A stretch of 64,000 nt of DNA, taken from Arenicellales bacterium (GTDB lineage Bacteria > Pseudomonadota > Gammaproteobacteria > Arenicellales > JAJDZL01). A program made the position numbers and the translations under genes. Positions 35,956 to 46,376 of the stretch are shown piece by piece. The stretch's first letter is position 1. Every line of letters starts with the position of its first letter. Location: assembly GCA_965200545.1 (NCBI GenBank), contig CBDAUJ010000002.1:1224850-1288849 (forward strand), given 5' to 3'. The notes beneath the pieces were generated by a model that was not told the DNA's origin, did no database searches, and saw only the letters and a list, made by a program, of their open reading frames with translations.

Positions 35956-37110
35956 ATGAAATTGAAAACAGCCTTGGTCGGCCTGGCTGCGTGCGCCGCT
36001 ACCTCGATCGCAGGTGCGGCAGAAATGAAAACTGAAATTGGCGCTGGTGAAGGTGCAGTGGACATTATCGCCTGGCCCGGCTACATCGAACGCGGCGAGA
36101 CGAGCCCAGATTTCGATTGGGTTACCAGTTTTGAATCTGCGACTGGGTGCGAGGTGCGGGTCAAAACCGCCAATACGTCGGACGAGATGGTGGCGCTGAT
36201 GAATGAAGGGGGCTTTGATCTGGTCACCGCTTCGGGCGATGCATCGCTTCGACTCATCGCCGGAAAACGCGTGCAGCCGGTCAACATCGATCTGATTCCA
36301 AGCTGGAATACAGTCGACGATCGGCTCAAGAACGCACCTTGGCACACGGTAGATGGCGTTCATTACGGCACCCCGTACATGTGGGGACCGAATGTATTGA
36401 TGTACAACACAGATGTCTTTCCGGAACCGCCCCAAAGCTGGGAAGTGGTGTTCAGAGAGATGGCCTTGCCGGACGGGGTTTCCAACAAAGGACGTGTGCA
36501 AGCCTACGATGGTCCGATTCATGTGGCTGATGCTGCCTTGTTTCTGATGCACCATCGCCCGGAACTTGGGATCACCAGTCCCTACGAACTGAATGCAGAA
36601 CAGTATGCGGTAGTGCTCGATTTACTTCGCGAGCAGCGGAAGATTGTGGGTCGCTACTGGCATAACGCTTTCATTCAAATGGATGATTTCACGAATGAAG
36701 GCGTAGTCGCATCAGGCTCGTGGCCTTTCCAGGTCAATCTGCTGCAGTCCCAAGAACTTCCGATCGCTTCGACTATCCCGGTTGAAGGCGCAACCGGCTG
36801 GTCTGACACGACGATGATGCATGTAGATGCCGCACATCCAAATTGCGCCTATATGTGGATGGAGCATACCCTGTCGTCGAATCTCCAAAGTGATTTGTCA
36901 GTTTGGTTTGGTGCGGTGCCGCCGGTATTGGCTGCCTGCACGGACGGTCGCGGCATGCAGACCGCTGAAGGCTGTGCGAAAAATGGACTGAATGATTTCG
37001 ACAAGATCAAATTCTGGACCACTCCGGTGTCGAATTGTCCCAGTCAGGGAGAATGTGTGCCATACTACCGCTGGGTATCCGATTACATTGGTGTGATTGG
37101 CGGCCGCTGA
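35956..37110 (+). CDS. ABC transporter periplasmic substrate-binding protein (PotD/PotF-like)
   Basis: Signal peptide MKLKTALVGLAACAATSIAGAA, followed by a family 1 solute-binding fold. Confidence 0.85.
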   Translation: MKLKTALVGLAACAATSIAGAAEMKTEIGAGEGAVDIIAWPGYIERGETSPDFDWVTSFESATGCEVRVKTANTSDEMVALMNEGGFDLVTASGDASLRLIAGKRVQPVNIDLIPSWNTVDDRLKNAPWHTVDGVHYGTPYMWGPNVLMYNTDVFPEPPQSWEVVFREMALPDGVSNKGRVQAYDGPIHVADAALFLMHHRPELGITSPYELNAEQYAVVLDLLREQRKIVGRYWHNAFIQMDDFTNEGVVASGSWPFQVNLLQSQELPIASTIPVEGATGWSDTTMMHVDAAHPNCAYMWMEHTLSSNLQSDLSVWFGAVPPVLAACTDGRGMQTAEGCAKNGLNDFDKIKFWTTPVSNCPSQGECVPYYRWVSDYIGVIGGR

Positions 37111-37203
37111 GACCGTACAAGCACTATCGAATCGTCTCCGATTTGCTGCCGCTGGCCAACAATTGCGAGCGGCAGCAAAGACTTTGCACCCGAGCCTGAC
37201 TGA

Positions 37204-38196
37204 ATGGTTGCTGCAGTTCTGTTTAATCAGGTTACGCGAAAGTTCAGTAGCTTTGCCGCTGTCGACTGTATTGACCTTGAAATACAAGAAGGTGAGTTTT
37301 TTGCTCTTCTGGGGCCATCCGGTTCTGGCAAGACAACCTGCTTGCGTCTGATTTCTGGCATCGATCGCCCGACATCAGGCCGAATCGAGATATTTGGCGC
37401 CCGTTGCGACGATATTCCGCCCAACCGACGGCCTGTCAACACAGTTTTTCAGGATTATGCGCTTTTTCCGCATCTGAAAGTCATTGACAATGTTGCCTAC
37501 AGCCTGCTGGTCAAAGGTGTGCCAAAAAAGGAGCGTCACCATGAAGCTGAACGCCTTTTGGAACTGGTCAAGCTCGGTGGTTTTGGCGGGCGCTCGCCTG
37601 CGCAGCTGTCAGGCGGCCAAAAACAGCGAGTCGCTTTGGCGCGGGCGCTGATCAACAAGCCGCGTATTCTGCTGCTTGACGAACCGCTTGGTGCATTGGA
37701 CCTGAAGCTGCGCGAGCAGATGCAGGAAGAACTCAAGTCCCTGCAGCAATCTATCGGTATCACATTTATTTTTGTCACGCATGACCAGAATGAGGCTTTA
37801 TCGATGTCGAATCGTATTGCGATCGTCAACGGCGGCCGGATCGTGCAGGTCGATTCGCCGCAGGAACTTTATCGCCGGCCCAGAACGCGGTTCGTGGCAG
37901 AATTTGTAGGTTCGTCGAATATCTTGCCCCCAGGCTTGAGTGATGCTGCCGGCGGTGCGAGAAAGTGGTCAAGTCTGCGGCCTGAATCGATTTCACTCGC
38001 TGCGCCCGGCGCTGGGCGCATCGATGGCATGGTCAAGTCGCATCGCTTCTTAGGCGCTGTGAGCCGCACTGTTGTCGCAGTCGCTGACGGGGAGATTCAG
38101 GTTGATCTCAGCGCTGCGGGCGAGTTGCCTGACATTGGCGCCGCAGTGTCCTTGAGCTGGGCATCAGCTGCACTCCACGCGATGCAAGACGAATGA
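37204..38196 (+). CDS. ABC transporter ATP-binding protein (PotA-like)
   Basis: Walker A GPSGSGKTT, signature LSGGQKQRVALARAL, Walker B LLLDEPLGALD. Confidence 0.92.
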   Translation: MVAAVLFNQVTRKFSSFAAVDCIDLEIQEGEFFALLGPSGSGKTTCLRLISGIDRPTSGRIEIFGARCDDIPPNRRPVNTVFQDYALFPHLKVIDNVAYSLLVKGVPKKERHHEAERLLELVKLGGFGGRSPAQLSGGQKQRVALARALINKPRILLLDEPLGALDLKLREQMQEELKSLQQSIGITFIFVTHDQNEALSMSNRIAIVNGGRIVQVDSPQELYRRPRTRFVAEFVGSSNILPPGLSDAAGGARKWSSLRPESISLAAPGAGRIDGMVKSHRFLGAVSRTVVAVADGEIQVDLSAAGELPDIGAAVSLSWASAALHAMQDE

Positions 38197-39131
38197 CAGC
38201 CGCTGCCACCGCAAGAGGCAATGAATCCGTTCGCCAATGGTCGGATGTATTTTGGAAAAAACCGCATCTGATCACTTTGCTGCTGCTTGCGCCGCCCATA
38301 TTGTGGCTCGGGGTGGTTTATGTCGGTTCGCTGTTTACCTTGCTGCTGCAGAGCTTTTTCTCGATTGATGAGTTTTCTGGTTTGGTGCGTTATGAATTCA
38401 CTCTCAAGACGTATCGCGAGCTGCTGTCACCGGTCAACTATGACATCATTATCCGCACAATCTTGATGGCTTGCGCGGTCACTGTGGCTGCGGCGATCAT
38501 TGCTTTTCCGATCGCCTATTATGCGGCTCGCTATGCGCGCGGCAAATACAAGGCAATATTTTATCTGGGTGTTATGCTGCCGCTTTGGTCGAGCTATTTG
38601 GTCAAGATTTACGCTTGGAAGCTCATCCTTGCCAAGGAGGGGATCATCAGCTGGCTGGTGGACACTTTGGGCATGCGGTTCATACTGGAGGCAGTGCTGG
38701 CACTGCCAGTGGTTGGCGGAAACTCACTGTCGGTGACCTATATCGGCACCTTTATTGTGCTGCTGTATGTCTGGCTGCCATTTATGATTCTGCCAGTACA
38801 GGCGGTGCTTGAGCGGATTCCTTCGGCCCTGCTGCATTCTTCGGGTGATCTTGGAGCTACCGCCGGCCAGACGCTTCGATTGATTACGATTCCATTGGCG
38901 CTCCCGGGTGTGGCTGCCGGCTCGATATTTACGTTTTCCCTTACTTTAGGCGACTTTATTGTGCCGCAGATCATTGGCTCTTCAAGACTTTTCATTGGCC
39001 AAGCCGTCTATGCGCATCAGGGCACCGCAGGAAACATTCCGCTGGCAGCGGCATTCGCGGTGGTGCCGATACTGGTGATGGCAGTGTATCTGGCGATTGC
39101 CAAACGCCAAGGAGCTTTTGATGCACTCTGA
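38193..39131 (+). CDS. ABC transporter permease (PotB-like)
   Basis: 312-aa ORF with about six TM segments and a BPD_transp_1 fold. A 4-nt overlap joins it to the ATPase gene. Confidence 0.88.
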
Positions 39132-39927
39132 ATCACGCGCGCCGATGGCGCTCAAGGCGGCCGCGGGCGCCGGGCTTGCATTTTTGCACTTGCCTATCGC
39201 TTTGATTTTTCTCTACGCATTCACGACTGAGGACAAAAGCTATCAGTTTCCACCTCCCGCCTTGACTCTCAAATGGTTCGGTGTCACTTGGAATCGGCCC
39301 GATGTGTGGGATGCATTGCGGCTGTCGCTCGAAGTCGCGACTGTCTCGACACTGATTGCCATTGTATTGGGCACTTTGTGTGCGGCTGCGGTTTCCAAGC
39401 TGAGGTTCTTCGGTCGCGAGACGATTTCTCTGCTGGTGATATTGCCGATTGCATTGCCTGGCATTATTACCGGCATTTCATTGCGCTCGGCATTCAATAT
39501 TCTGGATATTCCGTTTTCGACCTGGACCATTATCTTGGGTCATGCAACATTCTGTGTAGTTGTGGTGTACAACAATGCGATTGCGCGCTTTAGGAGAATT
39601 TCCGCCTCGCTGATTGAGGCGTCTTACGACCTTGGCGCAAATGCGTTCCAAACATTTCGCTATGTGCTGCTGCCGAATTTAGGAACGGCGCTGCTGGCAG
39701 GCGGGATGCTCGCATTTGCGCTATCGTTCGATGAGGTGATTGTGACAACCTTTACTGCGGGTCAGCAGCAGACGCTGCCGATCTGGATGCTTGAGGAGCT
39801 GGTGCGTCCGCGTCAGCGCCCCGTAACCAATGTAGTTGCTATGGTGGTTGTACTAGTGACTTTCCTGCCCATTCTGGGCGCCTACTATCTGACTCGAGAC
39901 AAGTCGACGAGTCATCGCGAGGCGTAA
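39121..39927 (+). CDS. ABC transporter permease (PotC-like)
   Basis: Membrane ORF with the EAA-like loop [15 protein letters not shown]. The ATG at 39121 is preferred over 39097. Confidence 0.88.
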
Positions 39928-40250
39928 TTCCAGCTGGAGCTCAGGTTTCATCAAAAAATGAATTGCTTTCGATACGGCAGGCGCTGTGTTTCTATGACAG
40001 GGCAGGATTTTATATCGCGTTGAGAAAGAGCGGTCATTGGGCTCCGCCTGTCACTTTTCTCATTTTTTTGCTTTGAACAGCCTGGCTCATGATCTCGGCA
40101 TTACGGTTTCCGAAGGTATAGAGATGAAACCGGTTGGTCGAAAAAATAAAACGATGTACAGAGGGTATACGTCAAATTTTTTCATTTTTCAAAATCTTCA
40201 CGACCGGCCGCTTTCTCAGGCAGCCCGGCATCAGCCGCCGCGGCAGATAA

Positions 40251-40283
40251 CTGCGACAAGGCCAAGCTGTGACCTTGTCGCAG
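40251..40283. repeat. Perfect 11-bp inverted repeat (ctgcgacaagg / ccttgtcgcag) with an 11-nt spacer
   Basis: Read directly from the sequence. There is no flanking T-run on either strand, so it is not a canonical intrinsic terminator. Confidence 0.6.
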
Positions 40284-40417
40284 ACTGTCCATACGGCGCT
40301 GTCAGGCCAGCTGCTGCCAGAATCACCGCTGATCGGCTGCGGCTGCAAGCAGGTTTGGCGATGATCCCCTTGACATGACGGTTCTAGCTGCCCTTTTGCT
40401 TGTTTGGCTATGGTTGG

Positions 40418-41066
40418 TCAGCTGGCGCAAGAATTGGAAGAAAACGCCCAGTTCCCGCCGCCTTTGCATTGAAAGCGCTGGCGAACCAAGGCAAGGATTG
40501 CCTCGGTTCCGCATCCTTTGCTATTTGGATTTGGCGACCATGCCGGCGCGGGCGGATTGGGATCGGGAGGGGTTTGGAACCAGGCTCTTGTGATTGGTTG
40601 GTTATAACGAAAACTCCGGCTATCGGACGCATGCATGGCCATGCAATGCTCTGTATCCGGATCTGTCCGAAGTGTTTGAGTCCATGAAGCAAAAGGTATA
40701 TTTCCGTTCAGTCCATGACTTATCATTAATCGTGGAAACAAACTGATCTGACTGAACGCCCAGGCCGCCTGTCCTTTTCTCCATGCCCCATAATTCATGA
40801 AATACGGCGGATCTATAAAGCAGACGCTTTTATCCTCAAGCGTTCCATCGGCTCTGCAATTAGCAATTACCTGCGGGACAGCTGAGCCTGTATCCGCGCT
40901 GTAATCAACCTCCCATTCGCGATTGCCATTGAGCGTTGCGGCTGCAGAAACACTAAACTCACCGCCAGCGAGTCTTTGAACCGTCCCCGCGGTCTGCCCC
41001 CCATCCCGGCCCCGCCATAAGCAAGGCTGCCAGCGCGGCAGTGACTGCTAATAGCATTCGTTTCAT
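40418..41066 (-). CDS. Putative secreted protein B, reading frame broken at a 6-nt G/C run just after the signal peptide
   Basis: An AGGAG RBS and the ATG at 41066 encode MKRMLLAVTAALAALLMAGPGWG. That frame stops after 35 codons. The long open frame (QTAGTVQRLAGGEF... down to the stop at 40418) is offset by one nucleotide. Removing one G at 40997..41002 would fuse the two frames. Confidence 0.6.
40997..41002. repeat. C6 (G6 on the coding strand) homopolymer at the frameshift point of secreted protein B
   Basis: Read directly: ggtctgCCCCCCatcc. Confidence 0.9.
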
Positions 41067-41091
41067 TGTTTTCTCCTTTCAGGGGCGGTTA

Positions 41092-41764
41092 TCAGGTGCT
41101 ATCGCAGCCCAATGCCATTCTCGCTTCGGCGTGCGTATGCTTGGGGTGATCGTCCAAGGTCTGGGCCAGATTGCTTTGCCCGCACAGACAGTTGCGGACA
41201 TCAAAAGGGGTGCGGGGGCTGATCGAGAAGCACCCGGTGCTGCCGCTGAGAATGTTGGTATTCGCAGGCGTGTAGGTTCCGCCCGTCATGAAACACAGCG
41301 TGTTGATTGGATTGGCCAGTCCAAGCCCTGTCACATCCGCATAGTAAATGGCGGTATAGGGCGTTTTGGCGGCAACGGAGATGTTGTTGACTACTCTGGC
41401 CACCGCGTTTGTCGACGTGACCGTCCCTAAATCTGTTTCACTGACCTGGGTTCCTGTTTTGCTGTTGATCACCCGCAGTTTCAGGGGAAATTCGCTAACC
41501 GAGGAATCGCCGCCAAGCCGCCCCCTCAAGAATGAGTAGGTAACGCCAAAGAAGTTATTCGTGAAAATGCCCTGCATGCCCGCGCCGTTTATCACGCTGA
41601 GATTGATCGCAAGATGGTTGCCATCAATATTATGGACATGGCCGCCCCCGCAGGCGGGCTGGCCGACCAGTCCCGGCGCGGCCATCAGCAAGGCCGCCAG
41701 CGCGGCGGCAAGTGCCGTTAATCTAGCGAGTCGGGGGGGGGAATCAGCCTATTGGATTGTTTCA
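41092..41764 (-). CDS. Putative secreted protein A, reading frame broken at a 9-nt G/C run inside the signal-peptide region
   Basis: A GGAG RBS and the ATG at 41764 encode MKQSNRLIPPP, then hit TAA. With 10 (or 7) C residues the frame would continue as ...RLARLTALAAALAALLMAAPGLVGQPACGGG into the 199-aa ORF 41092..41691. Confidence 0.65.
41732..41740. repeat. G9 (C9 on the coding strand) homopolymer, candidate slipped-strand switch
   Basis: Read directly: gagtcGGGGGGGGGaatcag. It begins 24 nt after the ATG of protein A. Confidence 0.9.
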
Positions 41765-42085
41765 TGTTCTGCTTCTCCGGTTATCTGGTTAAGCATTCAG
41801 CGTTATCTCCCGGCGCATAGGAGTCAACGGCACCGATTGCATCCGAATGATAGCACATCTGAGCACTCTGCTCAGGGGAATCAAGGGGCAGGGGGCAGAA
41901 GTCTCGAATTCGGACAGGAGCTTGATCTGCTGGTCGGGATGCGTGTGAGACGTGCCCTATTGTTGTGCCAGCAGCCGTGCAGACATCAATTGAATTCTCA
42001 CCTTGTTCTGTCAATTTTGAAAATTCTGACGCATACCCGTGTACAGATAAGATAAAGTCGTAAAAATAATAATTTATCGATCATT

Positions 42086-43241
42086 ATGGAGAGGTCAAGA
42101 CTATATCCCTCCGCACTATATGCGGCGTTTGCGATCGCTGGTTGCGCCGAACAAGTGTGTTGTGACTTACGGTCAGCGCCGAAGTGGCTAAACGACCCTG
42201 ATTACCCGATATGTGCAAAGAGTATGAGCCTGATGCCCTGGTGGCCGCCGGTCAGGACATCTTCGTTCGAGATTATCTGGAAAGTCAATCGATAGCGAAG
42301 CTGAGAAGTTTCGTTGGGAATCATTTAACTTTCGTGATCGACGAGGCGCAGCATGTGCGTGATATTGGCTTGAACCTGAAACTGATTGTTGATCACATTC
42401 CTGATATTTCGGTTGTCGCAACGGAATTATCTTCGTTTGGATTGGGACATGCAGCTGGTACGCCGCTGACTGGTTGCAAGCATACACTTGTTTTGTCGCT
42501 ACTGGAACAATCGGAAATTCAGGTGCGGAAGTCACGCCATGAAACAGCTTCGAATCTTGAAGCTCGCCGGATTTACGGAGCCTATCCAGAGGTTGTTCTC
42601 AAAGAATCAAATCAAGAGCGTGAATTGTATTTGCAGGAATTGATTGATTCATATCTGCTCAAGGATATTCTGCAAGCCGGTGCGGTACGGCTGACCGACA
42701 AGCTGCTGCGTCTGCTGCAGCCAATCGCTTTTCAAATTGGAAAGCAGGTTTCTCTGACTGAATTAGGCTAGCAGCTTGGCATGAGCAAGAATTCGGCTGA
42801 ACGCTGTCTGAATTTGCTGGAGAACACTTTTGTCCTTTACAGCCGCAGCGTTTTCAGCCGCAACTTGCGCAAAGAAATTTCAAAAAGTCGGAGATATTAT
42901 TTTTATGACAATCGCATTCGCAATGCGCCGATGCGTAATTTCAATGTACTTTCGCTGCGTGATGATGTCGGTGCTTTATGGGAGAATTACGTGATGGCAG
43001 AGCGATTGAAGAGAAATTTGTACTTGGGATATCGAATAGAGAGTTTTTTCTGGCGAACTCATGATCGTCAGGAGATTATCTCATGGAGGAAGAGGGCGGA
43101 TGCATTGCGGCCGCTGAAATGAAGAGGTCCCGACAGCCAGCGTACAAAAGACTGGCGGCTTGGGCCAAAGCCTATCCTGAATGTGAGTATCAGATTGTTC
43201 ATCCGGACAATTATCTGGATTTCATTTGTATTGAAAATTAA
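42086..43241 (+). pseudogene. AAA ATPase with DUF4143 (AAA_14 family), multiply disrupted
   Basis: The Walker A reads GQRRSG*TTL, with TAA at 42189..42191 in place of the Lys codon. A frameshift follows shortly after. There is an in-frame TAG at 42769..42771 and another frameshift near 43085. Family motifs FVIDEAQHV, YFYDNRIRNA and the C-terminal ...AAEMKRS... are still readable. Confidence 0.8.
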
Positions 43242-43380: not shown

Positions 43381-43446
43381 CTGAGCTCTAGAAGGATATT
43401 TGCGCGAATAGTGAATGTTCTAACCGTTGAGCTGTAGCCGCCATTG

Positions 43447-44745
43447 ATGGAGCCGAGACCTTTTCCGAAACCTGTCCCTGCTGAGCCTCTTGGCGAGGTC
43501 GAGTGGCTTCAGCGGACGGATCGGGCCGAAGTGGGACGCGAGCCGTTCTTTTGCGGCCGTGATGCCGAATACGAGGTTTTTCAAAAAGCGGCGACTAGTC
43601 TTTTGTCAGGTCACGTTGGCGGTGGGACCATGATCTTCCAAGGGGCGCCCGGAGCGGGTAAGTCAGCACTGCTGCAAGAGTGCATGGAAGCGGTGCGCCG
43701 GCACTCGACGCCCCAGGAGCCGTGGGTGGCCGTGTCGGTTTCCGCGAGCGGCTTGAAATCGTCTCTGGAGGTGATTGCAGCCTTGGCCGATGCGGCCGAT
43801 GCGGAGAGCCGGCGGCTGTCTCGGCTCAGTTCAAGCGCGTCGAAACTGGAGCCTTTGGCGAATCTGGGCAAACGGCTTTATGATGAGCTGTCGCAGCGGG
43901 GCTTCTCGCTGGCGGGAGTTGCGGTCGGGGGCAAGAGCCAAACGGAGTCGGATGCCGAGGTGCTGCCGGCGGGACTGTTTCGCAATGCCGCGCCGCTGCT
44001 GGAGGATTTTCGCTTCGTCGTATTGGTCGATGAGGCGCAGAACACGCCGGTGCGTGAGAGGACGAAAGCCGTTCTTGACTGCTTGCACCGGGACCCGCAG
44101 GGGATTCATCTGGTGGCGGCGTTTTTTGGATTGGGCGATACTGAGGAGGTGCTGGGCGAGTGCGGACTGTCGCGGCTTGCGATTGGGCGGGTTGTGAATT
44201 TGGAACCGCTTTCCCTGGCCGATGCGGCCGGCTCATTCAGGCGCATGCTTGACACGTATTACGCTGGCAGCGATGCGGAAAAAGACACTTGGTCCGTCTC
44301 TTTGGCCGAGTTGTCACAGGGCTGGCCGCAGCATATCAGCGGTATCGGCTATGGTGCCGGCGCAGTGATTCGTGAAAATCATGGGAAGCTGACGCGCTCA
44401 TGTCTTGCGAAAGCGTTGGAGCAGGGCGTTGAGCAGAAAAATGAATATTATGAAAAGCGCCTTATAGCTGGCAAGTATCCACCTTGGGTATACAAGCAGA
44501 TAGCGCTGAAAGCGGCAAAAAATCAAGGCCAGCTTGCGGGCATTATTACGTATGAGGAGGTGTATAGCCTGACTGAATCGGTTCGAAAAATGCAAAACCA
44601 AACTGTTGGCGAGTTTGTCACGACTGCCTTGCATGCCGGTCTGCTGGCGCCGGTGGACGGTCTGCCCTTTCACTATTGCTTTCCGATTCCGTCTTTGGGT
44701 GATTATCTGAGAGCGCTGCCGGTCGCGTTGCCCGATTCAGCCTGA
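43447..44745 (+). CDS. P-loop NTPase, AAA+/ORC-Cdc6- or STAND-like (AAA_16/22-like), paralog 1
   Basis: 432-aa product from the ATG at 43447. FCGRDAEYEVF precedes Walker A GAPGAGKSALL. Walker B is FRFVVLVDEAQ. The C-terminal region is helical and possibly a winged helix. Confidence 0.75.
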   Translation: MEPRPFPKPVPAEPLGEVEWLQRTDRAEVGREPFFCGRDAEYEVFQKAATSLLSGHVGGGTMIFQGAPGAGKSALLQECMEAVRRHSTPQEPWVAVSVSASGLKSSLEVIAALADAADAESRRLSRLSSSASKLEPLANLGKRLYDELSQRGFSLAGVAVGGKSQTESDAEVLPAGLFRNAAPLLEDFRFVVLVDEAQNTPVRERTKAVLDCLHRDPQGIHLVAAFFGLGDTEEVLGECGLSRLAIGRVVNLEPLSLADAAGSFRRMLDTYYAGSDAEKDTWSVSLAELSQGWPQHISGIGYGAGAVIRENHGKLTRSCLAKALEQGVEQKNEYYEKRLIAGKYPPWVYKQIALKAAKNQGQLAGIITYEEVYSLTESVRKMQNQTVGEFVTTALHAGLLAPVDGLPFHYCFPIPSLGDYLRALPVALPDSA

Positions 44746-45077: not shown

Positions 45078-46376
45078 ATGAACCCCAGACCTTTTCCGAA
45101 ACCTGCCCCCGCTGAGCCTCTTGACGAGGCTGTCTGGCTAGACCAAACCGATCGGGCCGAAGTGGGCCGCGAGCCGTTCTTTTGCGGCCGTGATGCCGAA
45201 TACGAGGTTTTTCAAAAAGCGGCGACCAGTCTTTTGTCAGGTCGCGTTGGCGGCGGGACCATGATCTTCCAAGGGGCGCCCGGAGCGGGCAAGTCAGCGC
45301 TTCTGCAAGAATGCATGGAGGCAGTCCGCCGGCACTCGACTCCCCAAGAGCCGTGGGTAGCTGCAGCGGTCGAGTTCAATGACTTGAAATCCCCTCGATC
45401 GGTAATGGCTGCTCTGATTCATGCTGCCGATGCGGAGACTCAGCGGCTCTCAGCACTTGTTTCAGATGACTCAAAAGTGAAGCATTTGGTGAATTTAGGC
45501 AAAAGACTTTATGACGAGCTGTCGCGGCGAGGTTTCTCATTCGCAGGCGTTTCCATCGGCGGGGAGAGTCAGACCGAACATAATACTGAGATATCGCCAG
45601 CAGAGCTGTTTCGCAATGCCGCGCCGCTGCTGGAGGATTTTCGCTTCGTCGTATTTGTCGATGAGGCGCAGAACACGCCGGTGCATGAGATGACGAAAGC
45701 CGTTCTTGACTGCTTGCATCGGGCTCCGCAAGGGGTTTGCCTGGTGGCGGCCTTTTTCGGATTGAGCGACACAAAAGACATATTGAGGAAATGCGGACTA
45801 TCAAGACTTGCGAGTGGCCGGGTGGTCAATTTAGAGCTTCTTTCGAAAAATCAGTCCAAGGGATCGTTCACGCGCATGCTGAACGCTTACTATCGCGGAA
45901 CGCGAGAAGAGAAAAGCTTTTGGGCTGAAACACTGGCTGAGCTGTCGCAAGGCTGGCCGCAGCATATCAATCGAGTTGGCGTGGCCGCCGGGCGCGTTCT
46001 TAGCTCCAATGGCCGGGTGTTGGAACGTGTTCTGCTTGATAGAGTTTTGGAATTGGGTGTTGAGCAGAAAAACAAATATTATGCGCAAAGGCTGGAGGCG
46101 GGCGGATACCCGCCTTGGGTATACAAGCAGATAGCGCTGAAAGCCGCAAAAAATCAAGGTCAGCTTTCTGGTATTGTTACTTTCGAGGAAGTTGACAGTT
46201 TGACTGAATCAGCTCGAAAAAATGAAAATCAAACTGCTGGCGAGCTTGTCGAGAGTGCCTTGCATGCCGGTCTGCTGGCGCCAGTGGACAGTCTGCCCTT
46301 TCACTATTGCTTTCCGATTCCGTCTTTGGGTGATTATCTGAGGGCGCTGCCAGTCGCACTGCCTGATTCTGCCTGA
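45078..46376 (+). CDS. P-loop NTPase, AAA+/ORC-Cdc6- or STAND-like, paralog 2
   Basis: 432-aa ORF with the same Walker A and B motifs. The N- and C-terminal blocks are nearly identical to paralog 1, and the central segments are diverged. Confidence 0.75.
   Translation: MNPRPFPKPAPAEPLDEAVWLDQTDRAEVGREPFFCGRDAEYEVFQKAATSLLSGRVGGGTMIFQGAPGAGKSALLQECMEAVRRHSTPQEPWVAAAVEFNDLKSPRSVMAALIHAADAETQRLSALVSDDSKVKHLVNLGKRLYDELSRRGFSFAGVSIGGESQTEHNTEISPAELFRNAAPLLEDFRFVVFVDEAQNTPVHEMTKAVLDCLHRAPQGVCLVAAFFGLSDTKDILRKCGLSRLASGRVVNLELLSKNQSKGSFTRMLNAYYRGTREEKSFWAETLAELSQGWPQHINRVGVAAGRVLSSNGRVLERVLLDRVLELGVEQKNKYYAQRLEAGGYPPWVYKQIALKAAKNQGQLSGIVTFEEVDSLTESARKNENQTAGELVESALHAGLLAPVDSLPFHYCFPIPSLGDYLRALPVALPDSA

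Follow-up and report, generated by a model that had tools for sequence, protein, structure and literature searches.

Two adjacent genes for secreted proteins, here termed gene A and gene B, lie on the minus strand of a 64,000-nucleotide stretch of DNA (the window) from an uncultured, sponge-associated Arenicellales bacterium with a genome of 3.41 Mb in 8 contigs. In both genes the start codon is out of frame, at a G/C homopolymer in the leader, with the long open frame that follows. The leader of gene A contains a poly-C tract that is the proposed slipped-strand ON/OFF switch considered below. Plain numbers are window positions, all features of genes A and B are on the minus strand, and positions elsewhere in the genome carry a prefix (C1, C2, C6).

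Anatomy of genes A and B

Gene A starts at ATG 41765-41763. The 5′ flank (41766..42043) comprises the promoter region and a Shine-Dalgarno (SD) sequence (GGAG, 41775-41778) and is 86.5% identical to the paralogous locus C2:970405-970748. A scan for promoters and terminators gave nothing above shuffled sequences, with a weak sigma-70-like match at 42098-42069. The start codon and leader n-region (41742..41765) encode MKQSNRLI, the ATG plus seven further codons, and nearly the same 24 nt open a B-type paralog at C2:970665. The C9 tract follows (G9 on the plus strand, 41733-41741). As assembled, gene A is OFF: it reads MKQSNRLIPPPDSLD and ends at TAA 41720-41718, giving a 15-codon product. In the remaining wrong frame the first stop is TAG 41725-41723, and these overlapping stops (41718..41725) both fall 4-5 codons past the tract. 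One more C (C10) or two fewer (C7) connects the ATG to the stop-to-stop frame 41092-41745, which restores a 218-codon open frame and 224 aa counted from the ATG. This architecture, with TAA reached at nine C and the 3′ open frame restored by 10 or 7, is as the original prediction had described it and is borne out from the sequence, with the ATG and the tract shifted by one base from the 41764 and 41732..41740 given there. The first ATG, GTG, or TTG of the 218-codon frame is TTG 41691, and initiation at that codon would lose the signal peptide; the restored frame has no usable start ahead of the signal-peptide hydrophobic core. The gene A body (41092..41732, stop 41092-41094) encodes the remainder of the signal peptide, with the h-region at about 41671-41715, and a mature Cys-rich β-sandwich protein of family A.

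Gene A has a second lesion at the end of its signal peptide. All 37 of the 37 aligned homologs read ..AAPVWAQ(N/T)(V/I)TAPGL.. where gene A reads ..MAAPGL... Alignment with the closest relative, L040, shows that an in-frame deletion of 27 nt between two direct CGCGCCGG repeats left CGCGCCGG at 41673..41680 as its scar and took out PVWAQNVTA, the AXA signal-peptidase site. The n- and h-regions are present in restored gene A, and the VWA|Q segment is lost.

Gene B starts at ATG 41066, 26 nt past the gene A stop. The intergenic spacer (41064..41091) includes its SD sequence (AGGAG, 41073-41077) and start codon (41064-41066). The leader reads MKRMLLAVTAALAALLMAGPGW and then G6 (40997..41002); the frame as assembled (40959..41066) is 35 codons followed by TGA. 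Removal of one G joins the leader to the open frame 40418-41044 (209 codons), and here the earlier coordinates of the ATG and G6, together with the one-base restoration, are exact. The gene B body (40418..40996, stop 40418-40420) encodes a mature Cys-rich β-sandwich protein of family B and is out of frame with the start. The gene is followed by a conserved 3′ flank (40170..40428) with 86% identity to C2:971384-971642. This flank holds a hairpin with 14-nt arms at 40251-40283, about 135 nt past the gene B stop, with no T-run after it. A search of Rfam with 39800-42400 gave no match.

The two genes had been called paralogous. Their leaders are paralogous, forming a 45-nt direct repeat of 82% identity (41004-41048 and 41671-41715), and true paralogy of the whole genes is rejected, as the mature proteins show no similarity by BLASTP (E 0.88). 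The leader alignment gives the cassette as ATGAAACGAAT, then AACCAGTAAATA-Cn-CT, then TGCTAAATTAGCA, and the middle part with its tract is missing from gene B. In the cleavage region the relatives read TGGGCGCAG (W-A-Q). The closest leader to gene B in its own genome, C2:181578 (GGATGGGGGCAA, in frame), reads TGGGGGCAA (W-G-Q, G5), and gene B reads TGGGGGGCAG, with a G6 that is +1 relative to G5 at the cleavage region. Restored gene B has n- and h-regions and keeps ..PGWG|Q at the putative cleavage point. The G-Q-(T/P)-A junction that the original prediction took, in both genes, as support for ancestral fused frames is genuine in gene B, where homologs read ..VWGQTTGT; in gene A it was made by the 27-nt deletion.

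Gene B is probably a fixed frameshift pseudogene: its poly-C segment has been lost, its G6 arose from a G5 by gain of one base, none of the five further G6 runs of the window breaks a frame, and the genome has intact mutS and mutL genes. The MutL sequence shares 85% identity with its counterpart in an Arenicellales metagenome-assembled genome (MAG), which places the host among sponge-associated Arenicellales. A G/C run is taken as hypermutable at about 8 or more bases, or at shorter lengths in a repair-deficient host, and a G6 beside intact mutS and mutL falls short of this. The ratio of nonsynonymous to synonymous substitution rates (dN/dS) between gene B and its paralog is 0.76. Like those of homologs P0032, P0033, and P0044, the gene B leader had turned tract-less and always in frame before the insertion.

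The N termini of the restored proteins match those of database homologs: gene A matches P0016 (MKQLMRSPPPPALSLAKLTALLL..) and P0021 (..YPPPRLLNF..), and gene B matches P0108 (..LLVAGQVWGQTTGTIS). In both families, the homologs of full length start with MK..(T/S)PPP(R)KLTALAA... (P0016, P0021, P0105, P0108, and P0114). Many other database homologs begin at an internal Met within the signal peptide, which suggests that these genes are out of frame as well. Family A has 101 matches and, in a set of 1.84 billion representatives, only 103 clusters at the 50% identity level, and family B has 16 matches. The homologs of either family with a named source come from sponge-metagenome MAGs, and family A appears confined to sponge-associated bacteria.

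Neither restored-frame piece matched Pfam-A or NCBIfam. Structure prediction, which had been proposed as a check, returned β-sandwich models for both proteins. The AlphaFold model of A is a confident β-sandwich with a Cys-rich C-terminal part (predicted local distance difference test (pLDDT) 84, predicted template modeling score (pTM) 0.81), and the model of B is a fair β-sandwich (pLDDT 74). Foldseek searches of the PDB with the two models gave no match at E < 1e-3, and the neighbors were generic Ig/FN3-like sandwiches only. The conserved cysteines of A and B suggest that both could be disulfide-stabilized exported proteins, and the gene A cargo is read as a small secreted β-sandwich with three likely disulfides.

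A second locus of this genome, C2:970405-971642 (L110), is collinear with three blocks of the window: 42043-41681 (gene A flank and leader, 86.5%), 41047-40548 (gene B leader core and body, 76%), and 40428-40170 (3′ flank, 86%). The first two alignments share the conserved leader core; therefore, this locus consists of an A leader and a B body, and the gene A body is absent. It is in frame at its own C9, but has an in-frame TAA at signal-peptide codon 30. Its C-terminal module differs from that of gene B.

The poly-C leader and G/C tracts in sponge-associated bacteria

A scan of 185,579 species genomes returned 146 family A genes, and the best-matching 80 of the 146 were examined. These 80 loci are all in sponge-associated MAGs, which belong to the Paracoccaceae, Pseudomonadales, Arenicellales, Thiotrichales, Rhodospirillaceae, and others and include both HiFi chromosomes and Illumina bins. 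One Paracoccaceae chromosome carries more than 25 copies. Sixty leaders among the 80 loci have a poly-C tract of C7 to C26 located 8-28 nt past the ATG, and the cassette is ordered as SD sequence, ATG, 4-9 codons, poly-C, stops in both wrong frames, and hydrophobic core. The tract has a length of 9 in 25 leaders and of 10-15 in 24, and lengths of 17, 19, 20, 21, and 26 also occur.

The frame state was assigned in the 55 leaders with a placeable upstream ATG: 8 are ON, about 31 would have to lose one C, and about 16 would have to gain one. In the Illumina bins alone, 4 of 12 leaders are in frame. Tract length differs in 16 of 42 leader pairs whose flanks are at least 93% identical; the flanks of L059 (C9) and L060 (C11) are 100% identical. 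Both wrong frames stop within 8 codons past the tract in 45 of 60 leaders, compared with 164 of 1200 random positions (14%). Out-of-frame copies have intact bodies of more than 200 codons, and dN/dS is 0.3-0.5 across the family. Gene A shares several of these properties. Its C9, 8 codons in from the ATG, is long enough to be hypermutable (about 8 or more G/C within the reading frame or promoter), a single unit changes the product from 15 codons (C9) to 224 aa (C10), and the 218-codon frame remains intact in the OFF state with a dN/dS of 0.52 against L040 (0.30-0.50 in the family). The polymorphism of the tract between constant flanks is seen at the level of the family. The leader is read as a reversible switch and not as a graveyard of pseudogenes because frames under selection stay open downstream of a tract that varies more quickly than the flanking sequence.

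Two segments of gene A, 41155-41325 and 41611-41724, have a depth of 300-1400x in the run contigs of the sample, where the organism itself has about 9x. Far more abundant members of the sponge community thus have DNA with the conserved family A motif and the leader core.

The genome of this bacterium contains 165 G/C runs of length 6, 20 of length 7, 9 of length 8, 35 of length 9, and 4 of length 10, so that the number drops steeply up to length 8 and has a peak at 9. A technical cap as the origin of this peak was rejected, since MAGs of the same project have tracts of C12-C26 and Illumina bins have C8-C17. Genomes of the same genus have 0-24 exact G9 runs, compared with the 35 here. The frame is kept at 17 of 19 G7 runs, and about half of the G8-G10 runs within open reading frames (ORFs) are out of frame. 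The 48 runs of at least 8 fall into four groups of genes. About 12 are leader-type genes. The second group consists of GT1, GT2, GT4, GT25, and GT92 glycosyltransferases together with a TupA ATP-grasp protein, an FkbM methyltransferase, a carbamoyltransferase, and a sugar dehydratase, and six tracts of this group sit in one 12-kb polysaccharide locus. The third group comprises three Eco57I/MmeI-type and two N6_N4 DNA methylases, and the fourth a Calx-beta giant protein and a PG-binding protein. This gene repertoire is that of a classical phasome. In Campylobacter jejuni, a modal tract length of 9 is the outcome of insertion/deletion bias (PMC8355987).

The polysaccharide-biosynthesis locus at C6:58500-71500 (L106) has six tracts of 8-9, and several of its genes are split by a tract; the tract genes encode GT1/GT4, GT2, GT2_4, GT4-GT1, and GDP-mannose-dehydratase-like proteins. 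A second recurrent tract position is seen in two genes, C2:659546 and C2:1419549, where G9 comes after the signal-peptide hydrophobic core. One of these encodes a 1,420-codon PG-binding protein and is in frame.

Read-level length heterogeneity, which the original prediction had proposed as its first check, was sought at 15 tracts in five stretches using contigs of public runs (3-14x). At the GT2 tract C6:60648, run X1 and the assembly have G8, whereas run X2 of the same sample has G9, the length that puts the gene in frame. No other indel separates X1 from X2 across 13 kb of the polysaccharide locus. At C1:159236, the X1 contigs end precisely at the C9 run, and the remaining tracts were concordant or uncovered. 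Runs X3 and X4 of the same study and X5 and X6 of other sponge metagenomes contained conserved motifs only and not this organism. The check thus had one positive outcome, at C6:60648, which at the level of contigs is suggestive; the gene A tract is covered by one run.

Readings of the two loci and their rivals

The broken frames of genes A and B are neither an assembly artefact nor chance. The G9 at 41733-41741 is the sole G/C run of at least 7 in the window. The other long homopolymers (G/C of at least 6 or A/T of at least 7) are five G6, two A8, and ten A7/T7, and all 17 are located in uninterrupted frames of 215-1162 aa, in agreement with the earlier statement that the housekeeping genes of the window show no homopolymer frameshifts. 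Homopolymers are the weakest point of a long-read consensus and the coverage of the organism is low (about 9x and 3x), which would fit true lengths of C10 and G5 that were miscounted. The independent Logan assembly argues against such an error, as its gap-free contigs reproduce G9 in X1 (contig over 41567-41872) and G6 in both X1 and X2; so do the 17 intact frames and the Illumina-assembled MAGs, which are mixed in frame state too. Sequencing or assembly error is thus highly improbable.

The reading that we consider likely is that gene A has a slipped-strand switch leader, OFF at present, and that gene B has a tract-less copy of the leader and became a pseudogene by a +1 G. Slipped-strand mispairing in replication would alter the gene A poly-C by one C. 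One tract length in three (C7 or C10) would connect the start codon to the signal peptide and mature protein, and at other lengths translation would end after about 15 codons. The cargo would be a protein exposed on the surface or facing the host that is costly to express at times, for example in host recognition or phage attack. The anatomy, the tract polymorphism of the family, the tract spectrum of the genome, and one heterogeneous tract in the sample are shown, and from there we infer real-time switching of gene A's own tract, export, and function. Gene B would be an unrelated cargo behind a copy of the leader that became constitutively in frame when the poly-C segment was lost; a substitution would then have created G5, and the next +1 G (G6) would be effectively fixed in a mismatch-repair-proficient genome. 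The leader would also serve as a recombination substrate, as at the A-leader, B-body locus. The original prediction treated both genes as phase-variable contingency loci with fixed pseudogenization as the alternative. The former is well supported for gene A, for which the 60 leaders of C7-C26, the three frame states, the near-identical flanks, the phasome, and the one heterogeneous tract favor the switch, and is not supported for gene B, which is better described by the alternative.

Several observations weigh against this reading. No member of family A or B in the genome is both intact and in frame: the paralog of gene A is OFF with a poor SD sequence, two A fragments have a stop, gene B has its frameshift, and an in-frame TAA interrupts the B paralog. 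A set of local copies that are all lesioned also resembles decay. Gene A lacks the AXA site, and an ON variant might stay anchored in the membrane or be processed poorly. The ON state is under-represented in the relatives (8 of 55), mainly through about 18 OFF C9 paralogs in one HiFi MAG. The cargo has no match in Pfam, NCBIfam, or the PDB. At the level of the sample, the contig behind the G8/G9 difference at C6:60648 has a depth of 3.2, X1 and X2 agree at most of the other tracts that both cover, and no length heterogeneity was seen at 41733-41741 in the contigs of the one run that covers it (about 9x).

If both genes were plain pseudogenes, they would be remnants of horizontally acquired A and B families and C9 would be just the break point. 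Decay of this kind is unlikely but is a serious rival because there is no intact ON copy here and the family is absent from the genomes of the genus: neither family A nor the A-B pair was found in 18 same-genus genomes, and no orthologs were found in 30 related genomes. It is favored further by the double lesion of gene A (tract OFF and cleavage-site deletion), the dN/dS of gene B against its paralog, and the decayed AAA_14/DUF4143 gene that adjoins. Against it, frames of 199 and 190 codons are still open, the dN/dS of gene A is in keeping with the family's range, and a one-base tract change restores gene A; in addition, dozens of OFF copies in relatives have intact bodies, and G9/C9 tracts occur genome-wide in typical contingency genes. 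A further rival holds that C9 is decoded with no change in DNA, by RNA polymerase slippage or by a +1/-1 shift of tRNA-Pro on CCC, and that OFF copies are expressed constitutively at a low level. Homopolymers of at least 9 are known sites of RNA polymerase slippage and CCC-C is a classical +1 frameshift site. Many copies are at exactly C9, and a +1 ribosomal shift would correct the surplus C that is the most frequent state among relatives (about 31 of 55). All three frame states occur with errors in both directions, the shift required by gene A is opposite to that of most relatives, tract length differs in DNA between near-identical copies and between two runs, and stops 4-5 codons past the tract leave a short window. 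Such decoding is accordingly improbable, and a fixed programmed frameshift as the main mechanism was rejected on the three states of the homologs (8 in frame, about 31 at -1, and about 16 at +1). A reversible switch in gene A remains the preferred reading; gene A would then be a switchable copy that is possibly damaged.

A broader reading is held with clearly less confidence. The poly-C leader may be a horizontally shared, recombination-shuffled cassette placed before many unrelated secreted-protein genes by sponge symbionts of several orders and even classes, which together with the glycosyltransferase and restriction-modification tracts would provide these uncultured, non-pathogenic bacteria with a contingency system as rich as those of Campylobacter and Neisseria, with double stops and leader exchange as evolved features. 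Such a system may be tuned to host recognition or to phage pressure inside the sponge.

Relation to known systems and the neighborhood

In mucosal pathogens, phase variation by slipped-strand mispairing is textbook knowledge. Neisseria pilC has a poly-G run in the region coding for the signal peptide. The opa genes of Neisseria, a family of 11-12 copies, have CTCTT repeats in the leader, and outer membrane protein (OMP) genes of Helicobacter pylori have CT repeats in the 5′ signal region, with exchange of 5′ ends between babA and babB. Gene A resembles pilC in having a G/C homopolymer in leader codons, where a one-base slip would set the frame of both export signal and mature protein, and in its mismatch-repair-proficient host. 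It differs in host, an uncultured sponge-associated Arenicellales bacterium in place of a mucosal pathogen, and in cargo, a small Cys-rich β-sandwich. In addition, one leader stands on unrelated cargos in several bacterial orders, tracts reach C26, and switching is predicted from the sequence. The likeness to opa and the H. pylori OMP genes lies in a multi-copy exported family with a leader switch in each copy, most of them OFF, and in conserved 5′ ends that recombine and move the switch between genes, here at the locus with an A leader and a B body. In contrast to those genes, the repeat unit is a mononucleotide, the cargos that share the leader are not homologous, and the copies in this genome are few and all disabled, whereas relatives have more than 25. 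The C. jejuni phasome likewise has dozens of G/C tracts centered on 9 with mixed frame states, in glycosyltransferase, capsule and lipooligosaccharide, restriction-modification, and surface-protein genes (PMC8355987). Mismatch repair is lacking in C. jejuni, whereas mutS and mutL are intact here, and the leader cassette is not a feature of C. jejuni.

A full-text literature search found no description of slipped-strand phase variation in sponge symbionts, of this portable leader, or of its tract lengths. What is new is the uncultured sponge-symbiont setting across orders, the portability of one leader over unrelated cargos, and the tract lengths. If the reading is correct, abundant uncultured symbionts randomly toggle exported proteins, surface-sugar enzymes, and DNA methylases. 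This would be directly relevant to the distinction that a filter feeder makes between its symbionts and its food and to phage-host dynamics in sponges. Gene callers miss or truncate poly-C leader genes, as seen in the many homologs that begin at an internal Met; therefore, the secretomes of sponge MAGs are systematically under-annotated. At the gene A/B locus itself the news is modest, with one copy switchable but possibly damaged and the other probably dead.

Genes A and B sit in an accessory island between an ABC importer (35956-39927) and a downstream cluster. Beside gene A, the AAA_14/DUF4143 ATPase gene at 42211-43122 (plus strand) is decayed, with two ORFs and its N-terminal part missing. 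Its intact paralog at C2:287532-288821 contains a C9 tract and is in frame. The same island also holds paralogous AAA_16 ATPase genes at 43444-44745 and 45078-46376 (plus strand).

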